This document shows, piece after piece, positions 28,675-40,588 of a DNA stretch of 64,000 nt. How positions within the stretch are numbered: the stretch's first letter is position 1; every line of letters starts with the position of its first letter. Position numbers and translations under genes: made by a program. The notes below the pieces were generated by a model. It was not told the DNA's origin, ran no database searches, and worked only from the letters and a program-made list of their open reading frames with translations. Origin of the DNA: an uncultured Lactobacillales bacterium (lineage in GTDB: Bacteria > Pseudomonadota > Alphaproteobacteria > CAAHEQ01 > UBA3637); assembly GCA_964414185.1 (NCBI GenBank), contig CAYPVK010000003.1, positions 37,085 to 101,084 on the forward strand, given 5' to 3'.

Positions 28675-28736
28675 AGTTTATCACACTGATTAGTTAATGG
28701 TGTGTTAATTGAAATACGTTAATTTTATTAAATTAT

Positions 28737-29012
28737 TTACTTTCCTGTGGTAAGATTTTTAATGTCTTTGAGGACATTTGATACATCTTTGTATTCTTTA
28801 AACCTGTCAATAAGAAGGTCCAGAACAACTTCTTTTTCGTCGCAGCCTGCAAGCTTAGCAACTTTTAAAGTTGTTTCGGGGCTTGGAGTGCTCCTTTTTT
28901 GAATAAAATTTGAAATGGAAGCTCCGCTAATTCCGACAACCTTGGCTACTTGATTGTTTGAAGATATGTTGTGTTTCAGCTTGGCCAAATTTACATAAGT
29001 TTCAAAATCCAT
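28737..29012 (-). CDS. XRE-family HTH transcriptional regulator (phage repressor-like)
   Basis: HTH QVAKVVGISGASISNFIQKRS. It is divergent from the replication gene. Confidence 0.7.
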   Translation of the reverse strand: MDFETYVNLAKLKHNISSNNQVAKVVGISGASISNFIQKRSTPSPETTLKVAKLAGCDEKEVVLDLLIDRFKEYKDVSNVLKDIKNLTTGK

Positions 29013-29161
29013 GTTTATCCATCCTTTCTGTTGTAAAGGTGTGATAAACTTTTTTATTATGTGTATAGAAAGTGAGAGGCGACATATTTACGAAAAATGC
29101 TTAACAACTTTTTTAATTATACCATAAAAATTTTTGTTGACAACTGTTTTTTTATTGGCTA

Positions 29162-29950
29162 ATGGTGTATATGTACACTGAAAGACTAACAGTAAAACGA
29201 GAAAAGCTTATGATGCCGCAGTTTACGCAAATACAATTACGAGTTTTAAAAGACAGGCGAGTTTCACCCCGTATGCGCGATGTTATGGGATTATTGCAAT
29301 CAATGATGAATGAACAGGGCGTATGTTGGCCATCGTTCAATTATATAGCCGATTCGTTGGGAATTTCGCGGCGAATGGTTATCAATATAATCAACCAATT
29401 GGTTGAATTGAATTATGTCATCAAAATGAAGCGCACAATCGAGGGGACGAACGAACAAACAAGCAATTATTATGCGATTAATAACAACTATGACGCAGGG
29501 TTGGCATTGCGCAAAAAGCGGGGTGGAAAACAGGCGCACAAGCTTGTGAATAAATCCGATTTCGGGGTGAAAAAAATTTCACCACCCCCTAGTGAAAAAA
29601 ATTTCACCCCGAATCAAGTAGATATTTTTTTAACTAAATGCGCGCATACACGTGAGCGCGCGGGCGCGCGTGTACGCGCGAACGGGACTTTGCAAGTTGG
29701 ATTTAATTGTTTTGACCAGCTTGTATGGCGAGAGGTCGGAAACGTACTTGAAGAGCAGGGATTTAGTCTTCAAGGTCTTAAAATTGAAAAGAAACAAGAC
29801 AAACATTACGTTATCCGGCCTTTCGAGATAAAAAACGAGGCGGCAAAGGACATCATAACTGCGGCGAATTTGGCTTTGCAGGAAATGAAAGGTCGAAAAA
29901 TCGGGAAAATAACTATACCGCCGGAAATATCATTGCAGGAGGCGATTTAA
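29162..29950 (+). CDS. Phage/plasmid-type replication initiator with a winged HTH (HTH_36-like)
   Basis: N-terminal motif CWPSFNYIADSLGISRRMVINIINQLVELNYV. The gene contains iteron-like repeats and a GC-rich inverted repeat. Confidence 0.6.
   Translation: MVYMYTERLTVKREKLMMPQFTQIQLRVLKDRRVSPRMRDVMGLLQSMMNEQGVCWPSFNYIADSLGISRRMVINIINQLVELNYVIKMKRTIEGTNEQTSNYYAINNNYDAGLALRKKRGGKQAHKLVNKSDFGVKKISPPPSEKNFTPNQVDIFLTKCAHTRERAGARVRANGTLQVGFNCFDQLVWREVGNVLEEQGFSLQGLKIEKKQDKHYVIRPFEIKNEAAKDIITAANLALQEMKGRKIGKITIPPEISLQEAI
29563..29611 (+). repeat. Two copies of the hairpin-forming 16-mer GTGAAAAAAATTTCAC inside the rep gene (iteron-like)
   Basis: Copies lie at 29567-29582 and 29592-29607. They are enclosed by the outer inverted repeat CGGGGTGAAA...TTTCACCCCG. 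Confidence 0.5.
29640..29680 (+). repeat. GC-rich (about 80% GC) inverted repeat inside the rep gene
   Basis: CGCGCATACACG...CGTGTACGCGCG with 1 mismatch and a 16-bp GC spacer. The composition is strongly atypical for this genome. Confidence 0.4.
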
Positions 29951-30120
29951 TGGCAAAAAGAAAGTATTATTTTACGGTTACTATGGCTCCAGCGGGTCAT
30001 TTTGTAGGCGATTTTGAAACGCTTGAAGCGGCTATGGGCTACTTGAGAAAAAACTTTAATATGAACTTAACGGGCATGGCAGAAATGTTTACCATTGTCA
30101 AAAAGGAATTCAAACAATGA
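29950..30120 (+). CDS. Small hypothetical protein (56 aa)
   Basis: TAATG overlap with the rep stop upstream and ATGA overlap with the next ORF downstream, both consistent with translational coupling. Confidence 0.4.
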   Translation: MAKRKYYFTVTMAPAGHFVGDFETLEAAMGYLRKNFNMNLTGMAEMFTIVKKEFKQ

Positions 30121-30461
30121 AAGAAGATTTTGCGCGGATGAAGTGCCCGGCGTGTGGAGCGGAAACGTTTATACGGATAAATAAAAACCGAATTTTATAT
30201 ACATATTGCCCTATGGGGCATCATTTGAAGTTGACGGCACAAGAAAGCCGCCAAGCAATCCCGGTTCTTACCACGGGCAAGCCATGGAACAATGGCATTT
30301 TATTTTTGTATCCACTAACGAAAGGAAAGCAAGACAATGGAACAAACAATGATGAACGAGTTGAAATTGGACGACGGGGAAATAGCGAATGTACCACCAA
30401 TCAACGAGATGGAAACACAAGAGCAGATGGAACAAATACCACCGATTGGTGGAACGTTTGA
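30117..30461 (+). CDS. Zn-ribbon protein
   Basis: CPACG...YCPMGH near the N-terminus. Coupled to the upstream ORF. Confidence 0.5.
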   Translation: MKEDFARMKCPACGAETFIRINKNRILYTYCPMGHHLKLTAQESRQAIPVLTTGKPWNNGILFLYPLTKGKQDNGTNNDERVEIGRRGNSECTTNQRDGNTRADGTNTTDWWNV

Positions 30462-30876
30462 GGCAGGTTTAAACGATATTATAACGCCTGATGATTTTTA
30501 TAATGGATTTAAAAGTGTTTTTGCTTTTGCGGGAGAATATACATCGACACAAAGCTTGCCAATTCAAGCACATGAAGAGCAGGGCGCGCGGCGCACGTCG
30601 GACAAACTGTATGAAATGGCTTTAAAATATCCTTTCTTGCGTTTTATGATTGATACAAAAACGTCATGGTTAGCAGACGTCAGTTTGATTAGTTTATTCG
30701 TTTATGGCAAAACAAATGCCGTGTTAGAAGAAAAAACAGGTTACGGATTGAATAAAATAATTTTTGGGAGGTTGGGCAAATGGTTACCGAAGCGAAAAGG
30801 GTCGGGATTTTTGGCGCGTCTGGGTCTGGGAAAACGACCAAAGCAAGAACAATCATCAGAAGTACAAAAAGATTAA
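30337..30876 (+). CDS. Hypothetical protein (overlapping frame)
   Basis: It covers the 318-bp gap before the ATPase gene and contains one hydrophobic segment. It overlaps neighbouring genes in another frame. Confidence 0.3.
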   Translation: MEQTMMNELKLDDGEIANVPPINEMETQEQMEQIPPIGGTFEAGLNDIITPDDFYNGFKSVFAFAGEYTSTQSLPIQAHEEQGARRTSDKLYEMALKYPFLRFMIDTKTSWLADVSLISLFVYGKTNAVLEEKTGYGLNKIIFGRLGKWLPKRKGSGFLARLGLGKRPKQEQSSEVQKD

Positions 30877-38021: not shown

Positions 38022-39104
38022 TTAAATACCTGATTTACGGCGATTACAATCTTTGCACAACATTTGGCAATTATCGAGTACGGTTTTCCCGCCGCTATGC
38101 CAAGGTGTAATATGGTCCCCTTCCATTTGATTGATTCCAAATGAACGGTTGCATTTCGGGCAAACGCCCTTTTGGCGTTCATAAGCTTCACGCTTCATAT
38201 TCTGGGTAAAGGCGCGAATATTCAGATGCTTTTCTTCACCGGATAAAACATAAGCATAAATACCGGATTTTTTCGTTACATCATCATCTTGCATAAGGGT
38301 CGTTATCCGTTTTTCCATTTCAACATTATTGACGGGGTTATCTTTAAACTGATTGTATAAATTCCCCCAGTTAATGCCTTTCATTTCTTTGCGATAGTTT
38401 GGAAAAATTGTTTTGACCCAATTAATCACATTTTGAAAATGTAACCATAATTCATTTGCATTCGGATCATGTTGATGCTTTGCCATATAGGATTGAATTT
38501 GCTCTTCACTTACCCAATCGATAGCCGTTTTAAGATATTCTTGCCGAATAGTCGCCCCTTTCACATAATCTTTGGCAATATTGTATGCAGGGCAATTTGT
38601 TTTGCTGAAATGTCGTTTTGCGTCCGTCAACCATTCGCCCGTATACATGGCATTTAATAATTCTTGATCGGTTAATTCTTCACCCGCAATATTAATTGTT
38701 CGGAACCATTCCAATTTTTCTTTATCCGTTCCTTCACAAATATAAATCATCAATTCATACTTTAATATCCGTTCCTTATCGGCGTTAGTTAAATTAAAAA
38801 AATAATTTCCGTTATATGAAAAATTCCCTTTTGCATATTCGCAAATGCTGACGGTTCTTTGTTGCCCGTCCAATAATTCGAATGTTTCGTCTTCATTTTT
38901 ACACCAATACATAACATTCAACGGAAAATCCTTTATGACGGTATCAATAACGGCTTCGCGTTGTTTTTCATTATACACGAATTCCCGTTGATATTTAGAG
39001 CGGATATTTAATCGGCCGTTGTATCCGATAACCCCCTCCTCTTCGGTGTTGGTGTACCCTTCAATTAAATCCTTGATTAAAATTTTGTTTAATTCTATTT
39101 TCAT
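38022..39104 (-). CDS. DUF262 (ParB-like nuclease, DGQQR) plus HNH endonuclease protein
   Basis: LDGQQRTVSI motif near the N-terminus. C-terminal HNH CPKCNRSF...GDHITPWHSGGKTVLDNCQMLCKDCNRRK. Confidence 0.7.
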   Translation of the reverse strand: MKIELNKILIKDLIEGYTNTEEEGVIGYNGRLNIRSKYQREFVYNEKQREAVIDTVIKDFPLNVMYWCKNEDETFELLDGQQRTVSICEYAKGNFSYNGNYFFNLTNADKERILKYELMIYICEGTDKEKLEWFRTINIAGEELTDQELLNAMYTGEWLTDAKRHFSKTNCPAYNIAKDYVKGATIRQEYLKTAIDWVSEEQIQSYMAKHQHDPNANELWLHFQNVINWVKTIFPNYRKEMKGINWGNLYNQFKDNPVNNVEMEKRITTLMQDDDVTKKSGIYAYVLSGEEKHLNIRAFTQNMKREAYERQKGVCPKCNRSFGINQMEGDHITPWHSGGKTVLDNCQMLCKDCNRRKSGI

Positions 39105-39284
39105 TTCTTTTTCCTGATCAGAATACGTCTGTAAGTTTCTTTCCCATTAATTAATCCATTCATTGTCCCGCCTGCTCTGCCTGTTACGCTCAATGGATGA
39201 AAACAATCTATGGGTTCCGTTTCCTGCGAATTGTGATTCTGGCGTAAGTAATTTTCCCATTTATTTTTCCTTCCGCATTTTTTA

Positions 39285-40109
39285 TCATCCCCGGAATCGC
39301 CATTGTACAAGGATACGAAAGTACGGTTGAATTCTCTCTCTGGTGAAAACTAGGTCTTTTCCATCTTCACCTTTGCGAAAACAAACAATTTCAAATTGAT
39401 CGGGATTATACTTATCAAGAAAAGTTATCGGTACACCCATAACGCCGTCATAATCACACGGAATATCGGAAACTTTGCTGACTTCAATGGCGTCATAGTT
39501 ATCATATTTTGGATATGCTTCGGGGGAATAATTACGATATAAAATCATTTCTTCATAGCGTTTTTTGTGTTCCAAGTTGGTGAACCAACAAACATTACCC
39601 ATTAAACGCCATTTTTGCCCCCGCTCATCTATTTGAAAACCTGTCATCTTTTTCTCATAATATTCGGGAACCATAAATTTTTTAACTTTTTGATAGCCCA
39701 ACCATAACTTATTTTCTTTAATCAAGGGAAAAATTTCTTTATATGTAATGGCATTTTGATTGCCAATTACAACGAATTTTTTGCCATATTCCACAAGTTG
39801 GGCAATATATTCGCGGAAAAGGGAAAATGGCGGATTTGTACAAACAATATCGGCTTGTTTCAACAGTTCGATACATTCTATGCTTCTGAAATCGCCGTTG
39901 CCTTTTAAACGTGTTAAGGCATTCTTTTTGTTCGCAAGCAATATTTTGATATCACTTAAATCAAAAGCCCCGTCCGAATTTTTGTCGGTAACTTCCGTAA
40001 TAATAATTTTATGCGCTTGTCGGGTGGTTTTGTTTTCTTTCGGTTCAAAATCGAAAAGGGATAATTCCGTATCGGCAATCGGGGAACCGTCATAACAAGT
40101 GGCAATCAA
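39285..40109 (-). CDS. N6-adenine DNA methyltransferase (NPPF motif), 3' portion in the main frame
   Basis: Motif IV DIVCTNPPF. The ORF as given starts at a TTG. The frame stays open upstream as far as a TGA at 40368-40370. Confidence 0.7.
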   Translation of the reverse strand: MIATCYDGSPIADTELSLFDFEPKENKTTRQAHKIIITEVTDKNSDGAFDLSDIKILLANKKNALTRLKGNGDFRSIECIELLKQADIVCTNPPFSLFREYIAQLVEYGKKFVVIGNQNAITYKEIFPLIKENKLWLGYQKVKKFMVPEYYEKKMTGFQIDERGQKWRLMGNVCWFTNLEHKKRYEEMILYRNYSPEAYPKYDNYDAIEVSKVSDIPCDYDGVMGVPITFLDKYNPDQFEIVCFRKGEDGKDLVFTRERIQPYFRILVQWRFRG

Positions 40110-40371
40110 TTTTTTTAAGCCGAGATGATTAAAATTAAGGACAAAATATTTGAAAAAATTACTTTCAAACGGATCATCGCAATTACAATAAACCGTTTTT
40201 CCTTTAAAATATTGATGATAATGGACAAGTTCTTTTTCTATATCGGCGAGCTGTGTGTAAAATTCATCATTTTTCGCGACTTTAGCCCTATGAAGTTTAC
40301 GGTTGTCGGAATTTTTAGCTATAACAGCATGTGTGTGTGGGGGGGGTGGTAACTGTTTGATTTTGTTTCAT
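40110..40371 (-). pseudogene. N-terminal coding segment of the methyltransferase, separated from its ATG (40369-40371) by a +1 frame offset at the G8 tract
   Basis: In the main frame, 40110-40367 encodes ..NDEFYTQLADIEKEL..FKGKTVYCNCDDPFE.. and is continuous with the MTase. The only ATG is out of frame with C8 on the coding strand and comes into frame with C7 or C10. Confidence 0.6.
40331..40346. repeat. Simple-sequence tract (GT)4 G8 (CA/C on the coding strand) within the 5' end of the methyltransferase gene
   Basis: Directly read: GTGTGTGT GGGGGGGG. It is the only long G/C homopolymer seen in this AT-rich window. Confidence 0.85.
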
Positions 40372-40588
40372 TTTTTTAATCTCGCTTTTTATATTTCAAA
40401 AAACATCTGTGCAAGTTTACAAAAAATTGAATACCTTGTCAATTTTTTTGAGCTCCCTTACCTTTTTTTATAAGAATTTGCCCATTTTTATTTTTTCGGC
40501 ATGGTTGCCTTTACAATAAATACTAAAATTGCAGCCCTAAAAATAAGACTGCAATTTTATTTAATAATCATGTGGTTAGTTGATTAAC

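Follow-up and report, generated by a model that had tools for sequence, protein, structure and literature searches.

A probable phase-variable M.EcoRI-like methylase/DUF262-HNH operon with a 5' repeat tract and three alternative C-terminal tails in an uncultured alphaproteobacterium

The DNA analyzed here is a 64,000-nucleotide stretch of contig CAYPVK010000003.1 (the window, numbered from its first letter), which belongs to an uncultured alphaproteobacterium, as judged by the relatives of its TsaD protein. On its minus strand it carries a gene for a putative M.EcoRI-like DNA methylase, whose reading frame is interrupted near the start codon by a simple-sequence tract, followed by a gene for a nuclease with DUF262 and HNH domains. 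The main features of both genes are the following:

40371-40369, minus strand: ATG start codon of the methylase gene, overlapping a TGA at 40370-40368.
40331 to 40346, minus strand: candidate 5' contingency repeat, C8 (40346-40339) followed by (AC)4 (40338-40331), read on the plus strand as GTGTGTGT-GGGGGGGG.
40315-40317, minus strand: premature TAA of the ATG frame, reached after 18 codons in the present C8 state.
39285 to 40367, minus strand: body of the predicted M.EcoRI-family methylase, including the stop codon at 39287-39285 (tail-1 state).
40268-40251, minus strand: motif NDEFYTQ in the methylase body (DEFYTQ listed at 40251-40268).
40187-40170, minus strand: motif CNCDDP in the methylase body.
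39836-39825, minus strand: motif NPPF in the methylase body.
38022 to 39104, minus strand: nuclease gene, 360 amino acids, DUF262 plus HNH.
38856-38870, minus strand: DGQQR motif of the ParB/DUF262 NTPase-like domain of the nuclease.
About 38097-38120, minus strand: DH of the C-terminal HNH domain (CxxC...CxxC), with a helical middle part between the two nuclease domains.

Re-reading of the sequence bore out the frame structure described in the initial annotation, which had placed an ATG one base out of frame over the TGA at 40368-40370, a plus-strand (GT)4G8 tract at 40331-40346 and a stop after 18 codons in the C8 state. The tract sits eight codons into the methylase open reading frame (ORF), that is, the ATG plus seven more codons. 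In the C8 state the ATG frame yields the peptide MKQNQTVTTPPTHTCCYS, terminated at 40317-40315, and the methylase body, in a frame shifted by one base, reads without interruption from 40367 to its stop at 39287-39285. The called methylase ORF comprises only 274 amino acids from an internal TTG (40107-40109), and the methylase-like frame that had been reported to continue open upstream of this TTG is indeed present. C8 corresponds to an OFF state, and C7, C10 or C13 would be ON. Frame restoration had been predicted for C7 and C10; removal of one C from the window in silico (C7) produced a continuous 361-residue protein, and a natural C10 allele, found in contig L003, is in frame. The absence of other G/C tracts also held, since in the 64 kb (39.8% G+C) the other G/C runs reach 6 bases at most, a length found four times, so that G8 is the sole run longer than 6.

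A Pfam search carried out with the 361-residue C7 protein revealed a match to PF13651 (EcoRI_methylase) with E = 1.3e-145 and 485.5 bits, the curated cut-off being 26.4 bits. The match covers profile positions 2-305 of 345, and the remainder corresponds to a variable tail described below. The methylase was also assigned to MTase_II by PADLOC (1.8e-126), and it is about 50% identical over residues 14-327 to the true M.EcoRI, which is encoded by an E. coli plasmid gene. The motifs NPPF and CNCDDP, in the catalytic/S-adenosylmethionine-binding region, were invariant in an alignment of 28 homologues. By homology, the protein is an M.EcoRI-family N6-adenine methyltransferase. A scan of NCBIfam gave no specific family for either the methylase or the nuclease, and a sequence search of the PDB with the methylase gave no match.

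A homologue search with the repaired (C7) methylase protein retrieved the exact 274-residue call of the window (P0003), a full-length protein of 389 residues that is 96% identical (P0001), and the P0001 protein called from the internal TTG (P0005). The contigs that encode these proteins are syntenic with the window, in the order trxA, methylase, nuclease and nitroreductase. P0001, encoded in frame by L003, begins at the ATG equivalent to window 40371-40369. The tract showed the following forms in these and related contigs:

Window and L002: C8(AC)4, OFF.
L001: C12(AC)4, OFF.
L003: C10(AC)1, ON, in frame, 389 amino acids.
L004: C9(AC)1, OFF.
L086-L089 and L093 (five samples, lineage 3): C7(AC)3, OFF.

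Alignment of L004 with L003 over 12,915 nt showed 0 mismatches and one gap, which is the tract itself (C9 versus C10), and L001 differs from the window over 8,871 nt by 2 mismatches plus four Cs in the tract. Contig L085 ends inside the tract, which is only a hint of instability. A second genomic context, in which the methylase is 77% identical and lies between an upstream ABC transporter and a downstream YbjN, has a poly-C at the same codon position, with C8 in one locus, C9 in 10 loci, C10 and C13; the C10 and C13 alleles are in frame and therefore ON. Over the assemblies of both contexts, 3 ON and 20 OFF states were counted.

Substitutions in the methylase body are almost exclusively synonymous. 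Over its first 615 nt the body differs from that of L003 by 17 synonymous changes and no non-synonymous one, and from that of L086 by 19 and 1, respectively, which gives a ratio of non-synonymous to synonymous rates (dN/dS) of about 0 to 0.01, with a neutral expectation of about 80% non-synonymous changes. The neighbouring gene tsaD showed 28 synonymous and 7 non-synonymous changes in the between-lineage comparison. The 70 codons upstream of the TTG, which would go untranslated in a dead gene with its ORF called from that TTG, contained 3 synonymous and 0 non-synonymous changes. The opposite pattern, a uniform tract with the gene broken in all relatives, was looked for across the assemblies and was not found. 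Because the tract mutates much faster than its flanks, occurs in ON and OFF states and precedes a gene under strong purifying selection, this pattern of variation identifies it as a contingency locus and not a plain pseudogene. The central proposal of the initial annotation, a phase-variable methylase currently OFF and paired with a DUF262-HNH gene, is in this way sustained by natural C7, C8, C9, C10 and C12 lengths that include an ON allele.

A decaying pseudogene, or an assembly error, would agree with the predominance of OFF assemblies (3 ON versus 20 OFF) and with the error-prone sequencing of homopolymers. It is contradicted by the synonymous bias of the body, by the lack of any other disruption of the methylase in any lineage, by the existence of ON alleles and by the recovery of the same tract length in independent assemblies (C9 in 10, C8 in 2 and C7 in 7). 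This alternative, which would also regard the 3' end of the gene as made of dead recombination relics, is extremely unlikely, and its second part is taken up with the data that follow.

Near its 3' end the methylase gene contains a second repeat, (AG)4, placed between the segments ...GKDLVFT and ...PYFRILV. The repeat and the C-terminal tails that would be read behind it are the following:

39333 to 39340, minus strand: candidate 3' contingency repeat (AG)4, in the loop of the last beta-hairpin, which sets the tail frame.
39285 to 39332, minus strand: tail 1, RIQPYFRILVQWRFRG and stop, in the frame now in use, ending 180 nt before the nuclease.
39208 to 39332, minus strand: tail 2, ...NSTVLSYPCTMAIPGMIKNAEGKINGKITYARITIRRKRNP and stop (tabulated as ...AIPGMIKNAEGKINGKITYARITIRRKRNP, stop 39208), in the second frame, reached by losing one AG or gaining two.
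39101 to 39332, minus strand: tail 3, ...PLSVTGRAGGTMNGLINGKETYRRILIRKKK and stop (tabulated as ...GLINGKETYRRILIRKKK), in the third frame, used after the gain of one AG; the stop, TGA at 39101-39103, shares bases with the nuclease ATG (ATGA).

All three frames are open downstream of (AG)4 and each closes in the terminal motif of the family. Tail 1 aligns with the class-A end ...PYFRILIRKK of M.EcoRI-like proteins. Of the three tails, only tail 3 ends on the nuclease start codon, and the same junction is found in L003, which has no spacer and whose methylase stop overlaps the nuclease ATG. The 180-bp spacer that had been noted between the two genes is a real gap between the called ORFs (39105-39284), but it is coding and holds two more methylase C-termini behind (AG)4.

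A comparison of the window with lineage 3 over this region (233 nt, no indels) revealed one change in the tail-1 stretch, synonymous in the frame in use, 6 synonymous and 2 non-synonymous changes in the tail-2 stretch read in the second frame, and, in the third frame, 7 synonymous changes without a single non-synonymous one across the final 32 codons of tail 3. Changes that are synonymous in their own frame are non-synonymous in the other two. Since the frame in which the changes are synonymous shifts along the so-called spacer, the substitution pattern shows each tail to be maintained as protein-coding sequence. The view of the tails as recombination relics, for which the shortness of (AG)4 could be cited, was rejected on account of these own-frame synonymous changes and of the use of each tail somewhere in the family.

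The distribution of the 3' arrangement was surveyed in 80 loci from species-representative genomes, obtained by a contig scan with P0001, in which the best match was 66% identical. A repeat between FEIV and the nuclease start, and the end motif Y.RI.I in all three frames, were found in exactly the same loci, for example in the window (tail 1 in use), L021 (tail 2), L059 (tail 3) and L039. The repeat varies in unit and length: lineage 3 has (AG)7 at the same loop, homologue DNA has (GA)4, (GA)6 or (GAAGA)10 there, and the loop peptides of homologues are coded by (GA)n, (CA)n, poly-G, (GAAGA)n or (AGCAG)n. An Abditibacteriota metagenome-assembled genome (MAG) with (GA)6 uses tail 2, an Acidimicrobiales MAG with (GA)4 uses tail 3, and a Flavobacteriaceae MAG combines (GAAGA)10 with three tails. 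Tail 2 is in use in L021 and also in P0008, P0036, P0052, P0091 and P0116. Among the best 120 protein matches, 36 form an insert subfamily in which tail 1 was found in 12 proteins, tail 2 in 5, a tail-3-like end in 12 and a duplicated C-terminal module in 5, with truncation in only 2. Two peptides that recur among these proteins, LTSEYSS and LLQNT, arise when the PYFRILI DNA is read in the +1 and +2 frames. Judged from these loci, the three-tail layout recurs in distant phyla with different repeat types.

Repeats were also found at, or a short way upstream of, the 5' end of homologous genes. Acinetobacter parvus DSM 16617 (L061) has ATG followed by (CGAACAG)n, a Pseudomonadota MAG has ATGACTA(CAAGCCG)9, which is out of frame, a 'Cyanobacteria' MAG has G10 directly before the ribosome-binding site, and a Flavobacteriaceae MAG has (GGCTT)7 about 130 nt upstream. 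That distant taxa carry unlike repeat units in the same position indicates repeated selection for switchability in this methylase family. In L061 (3864-4010) the (CGAACAG)n after the start codon is interrupted by a run of Ns in the public assembly, a gap inside the repeat as expected of a long unstable tract.

Other variations in the methylase were observed. P0002 (632 residues) is a tandem fusion of two complete M.EcoRI-like methylases, and other family members have, after the 3' repeat, a second C-terminal module that starts from GVPITFLDKYNPxQFEI and ends in a different tail (fusions or second modules were listed for P0002, P0020, P0055, P0063, P0077, P0100 and P0041); in such double-module genomes the 3' repeat may switch whole C-terminal modules. 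In lineage 3 (L086-L093), methylase residues at about 205-235 differ and the segment is shorter, with GFTTPGDFIQIAQELPKKMTGLTRW in place of GYQKVKKFMVPEYYEKKMTGFQIDERGQKWRLMGNVCW. This variable segment corresponds to window positions of about 39560-39700. On either side of it the methylase is almost unchanged, and the nuclease retains 94-95% identity; the difference is an allelic replacement that recalls the variable region of type III mod genes.

The downstream gene had been recognized from its DGQQR and HNH motifs as a DUF262-HNH protein, which agrees with the Pfam assignment of its N-terminus to GmrSD_N/DUF262 (3e-18) and of its C-terminus to HNH (PF01844, 1.6e-13); neither DUF1524 nor a helicase domain was found in this search. 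In PADLOC the nuclease matched REase_II end to end (model PDLC03418, 6.8e-140) and, weakly, mREase_IV (2e-4). A PDB sequence search gave generic HNH matches only. The nuclease family has at least 8000 matches, nearly all of them 360 amino acids long and about 67% identical across phyla. A relative of the nuclease adjoins the methylase in 68 of the 80 loci, which span Bacillota, Bacteroidota, Patescibacteria, Spirochaetota, Actinomycetota, Pseudomonadota and archaea, and the pair is also carried by a Lactiplantibacillus plasmid. The methylase stop lies between -20 and +6 nt from the nuclease start in 46 of 62 non-redundant loci, with the genes overlapping in 22. Riemerella columbina DSM 16469 (L030, 2904-5158) is an exception to the usual methylase-then-nuclease order, the DUF262-HNH gene being located upstream of the methylase.

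The type IV-like character that the initial annotation had attributed to the nuclease is borne out by its fold. One reading of the locus is that the nuclease acts independently as a type IV-like enzyme and that the methylase is an orphan-like, phase-variable epigenetic regulator (phasevarion). The best fold matches (BrxU, EcoKMcrA, SspE and TagI), the weak mREase_IV matches and the intact nuclease of both ON and OFF strains are in its favour. However, conservation of the pair in 68 of 80 loci across phyla, mostly overlapping or abutting, is unexpected for unrelated genes, and the REase_II match (6.8e-140) contrasts with that of the type IV model (2e-4). This reading is quite improbable. The nuclease, whose fold is GmrSD-like, is best regarded as the methylase's partner for restriction, within a module annotated as type II. 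Because of the end-to-end match to a type II hidden Markov model (HMM) and the operon partner conserved across phyla, a methylation-protected or methylase-dependent role appears more likely than a methylation-dependent one.

The sites found upstream of the methylase gene are the following:

40524-40559: terminator-like hairpin of trxA, with the promoter-like site just downstream of it.
40414 to 40442, minus strand: promoter-like site TTGACA-17 nt-TAAACT, upstream of the methylase gene.

The promoter-like site (40442-40414) is the best sigma-70-type match of the region (10/12, a consensus match only) and the one site of this kind upstream of the methylase in the window; no terminator-like site was found in the window between the methylase and nuclease genes. 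The locus is proposed to be a horizontally mobile two-gene restriction-modification operon, with the methylase first and a ParB-like-NTPase plus HNH nuclease second. C8(AC)4 changes in length by slipped-strand mispairing and puts the whole methylase ORF in or out of frame, as the natural length polymorphism and the purifying selection on the body show, and (AG)4 would decide which of the three overlapping tails completes the methylase. Since tail 3 alone reaches the nuclease start codon, changes in the 3' repeat could adjust the ratio of nuclease to methylase, or else alter the properties of the methylase; both ideas are speculative.

Several observations weigh against this interpretation. Switching within the population is deduced from differences between assemblies and not from reads, and the C10, C12 and C13 lengths rest on one assembly each. 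The (AG)4 repeat is short, with low expected mutability, and both lineages of the species are in the same tail frame with (AG)4 and (AG)7; slippage at (AG)n, and any effect on the function of the protein, are presumed for this organism. The AF2 structural model of the methylase is poor in the C-terminal third (predicted confidence, pLDDT, below 50 at residues 269-306 and 331-350) and was not used to interpret the tails. Neither AATT nor GAATTC is avoided in the 64-kb window according to palindrome statistics, which hence give no target signal. The nearest solved folds of the nuclease belong to modification-sensing or modification-dependent enzymes. In addition, the tail-1 methylase ORF ends 180 nt upstream of the nuclease, which has its own AGGA ribosome-binding site, predicted to be unpaired (mRNA fold, z = -1.58); since this site is predicted to be accessible, translational coupling would not be obligatory here. 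With these points taken into account, the probable explanation of the locus is considered to be a phase-variable operon in which a 5' tract acts as ON/OFF switch and a 3' cassette encodes three tails under selection.

A cell with a classic type II system would be expected to die on losing its methylase. Here the nuclease is intact in ON and OFF strains alike, and the viability of the OFF strains argues for something beyond that classic scheme. As OFF strains are viable with an intact and selected nuclease, and OFF is the dominant genotype in most samples, the nuclease must presumably be harmless without the methylase. The most likely explanation is that nuclease output falls when the methylase ORF is untranslated, through operon polarity or coupling, as suggested by the abutting gene arrangement that is usual in the family, the single upstream promoter and the stop after 18 codons. 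The 5' tract would then switch the whole system and not methylation alone, either by polarity or by a need for the methylase protein. Silencing of the nuclease in the OFF state by polarity or coupling is thus the leading reading, although it is much less certain than the phase-variable operon itself and somewhat short of an even chance. A structure-based form of coupling was unsupported, the predicted fold around the nuclease start showing no sequestration of the ribosome-binding site.

In the close alternative the nuclease needs the methylase protein itself: in a manner similar to type III enzymes, it would have no sequence specificity of its own and would cut only on recruitment or activation by the methylase. 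Turning off the methylase would in that case turn off restriction too, at the level of the protein, and the tails would alter the methylase-nuclease contact or the target. The 5' repeats typical of type I and type III systems are found where restriction needs the methylase, and 5' repeats have arisen repeatedly in this methylase family. The nuclease is uniform and faces a methylase with swapped internal and C-terminal segments, its N-terminal ParB/GmrSD-type NTPase domain is as expected of a regulated nuclease, and its accessible ribosome-binding site means that polarity alone may not silence it. On the other hand, the nuclease matches a 'Type II restriction enzyme' HMM over its whole length, which suggests that relatives have been catalogued as stand-alone enzymes, and no methylase-nuclease fusion proteins were found among the top matches. 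A methylase-dependent nuclease is a tentative possibility.

The viability of OFF strains despite an accessible nuclease ribosome-binding site would also be explained by a leaky OFF state, in which polymerase or ribosome slippage on C8-C12 restores the frame in some transcripts and the tract acts as a rheostat; OFF cells would make enough methylase to protect the genome from a constitutive nuclease. In other bacteria RNA polymerase is known to slip on long homopolymers, and in the sister module gene callers start at a TTG that follows the tract directly and lies in frame (P0142). In the window, however, the interval from the tract to DEFYTQ lacks any ATG, GTG or TTG in frame, and a leaky OFF state is considered unlikely.

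Under the preferred reading of a phase-variable operon, a wider proposal can be advanced, though we regard it as doubtful: M.EcoRI-like/DUF262-HNH modules may represent a distinct restriction-modification class, in which an NTP-dependent HNH nuclease is controlled by the methylase and the triple-frame tail cassette serves as a three-way switch. Such a switch would reprogram the target or activity of the methylase, or the nuclease-to-methylase ratio, and the two repeats together would give up to six heritable and reversible states.

Apart from the operon, a stretch of about 8.1 kb of the window (28676-36815) is missing from the otherwise collinear contig L003 and adjoins a tRNA-Gln gene (37202-37275, minus strand). 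It encodes a phage-type replication initiator (29162-29950), a fragment similar to the terminase large subunit (30780-31433), an endolysin/cell-wall hydrolase (34506-35006) and many small ORFs without match; it probably represents a small prophage, or the remains of a phage, inserted next to the tRNA gene. Because lineage 3 has different genes (helix-turn-helix and single-strand-binding proteins, HTH and SSB) at the same side of the nitroreductase gene, this place looks like an integration hotspot. In the whole window GATC is strongly scarce (68 observed versus 220 expected, ratio 0.31), and CCGG (0.55) and GGCC (0.56) are also depleted, which suggests past or present pressure by other restriction systems; no tie of these three avoidances to the methylase/nuclease locus was established.

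Most phase-variable methylases known so far come from the type I and type III systems of a small number of pathogens, and here one is found in a module annotated as type II that is very widespread and horizontally mobile, each of its two genes having 8000 or more relatives in metagenomes from gut, rumen and the environment. The independent occurrence of different repeats at the same two positions in distant phyla indicates selection for switchability, and this recurrence implies an unrecognised way of keeping the nuclease harmless while the methylase is OFF. The three overlapping tails would be a rare case of one DNA stretch that is coding and selected in all three frames, and a model for a repeat that chooses between protein variants instead of only turning a gene off. 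Annotation of metagenomes systematically misreads the truncated methylase calls and the 'spacers' of this methylase family. In the literature consulted, whose coverage was incomplete so that a prior description is possible, C-terminal phase variation was found as a concept along with many phase-variable type I, III and IIG systems, and neither this methylase/nuclease family nor its repeats or three-tail layout was found described.

Among known systems, EcoRI is the closest for the methylase, with about 50% identity, the common motifs DEFYTQ, CNCDDP and NPPF, and a terminal ...PYFRILI strand shared by tail 1 and M.EcoRI. It differs in its partner, which is the PD-(D/E)XK endonuclease EcoRI instead of a DUF262-HNH protein, and in its gene order, which is R then M there and M then R, with possible coupling, here; furthermore, the methylase described here carries two simple-sequence repeats and three alternative tails. 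With separate adjacent genes for a methylase and a nuclease that match type II models, the pair agrees with type II restriction-modification systems in its gene content and layout.

The early-ORF repeat with natural ON and OFF states resembles the phase-variable type III mod genes (ModA, ModH and ModS) and type I/IIG systems (NgoAV and Cj0031), and poly-G/C tracts are known to act as phase switches (PMC4889913, PMC5909438). In the mod/res systems of H. influenzae, variable methylase segments undergo allelic replacement beside a conserved nuclease gene (PMC1557822), and swapped methylase segments beside a conserved nuclease gene are likewise found here. The type III methylases are, however, PF01555 Mod proteins, whereas the present one is an M.EcoRI-like, gamma-type enzyme (PF13651), and Res consists of an SF2 helicase plus PD-(D/E)XK, whereas the nuclease here is DUF262 plus HNH with no helicase; the pair thus lies outside type III restriction-modification systems. 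The hosts of phasevarions are known pathogens and the host here is an uncultured commensal-type alphaproteobacterium. The 'mod/phasevarion' label first given to the methylase is an analogy only, the protein being an M.EcoRI homologue and not a type III Mod.

With GmrSD, BrxU and SspE the nuclease shares an N-terminal ParB-like DUF262 domain, the motif DGQ(Q/H)R and a C-terminal His-Me finger nuclease. Those enzymes have about 580 amino acids in contrast to 360 here, and GmrSD has DUF1524 (His-Me, EHxxP) in place of PF01844 HNH with two CxxC pairs. They also differ in that the nuclease described here is paired with a methylase, usually abutting, and matches the type II REase HMM; a conserved methylase partner is atypical for type IV enzymes.

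The 3' cassette is most comparable to C-terminal phase variation, in which a repeat at the 3' end changes the C-terminal sequence and expression is kept (Snyder et al. 2010, PMC2823697), and which has been reported for repeats of Neisseria gonorrhoeae (PMC5320596). It differs from that mechanism in that all three frames encode homologous, selected tails that restore the same terminal motif, in that the layout is kept across phyla with different repeats, and in that the stop of one frame falls exactly at the start codon of the gene that follows.

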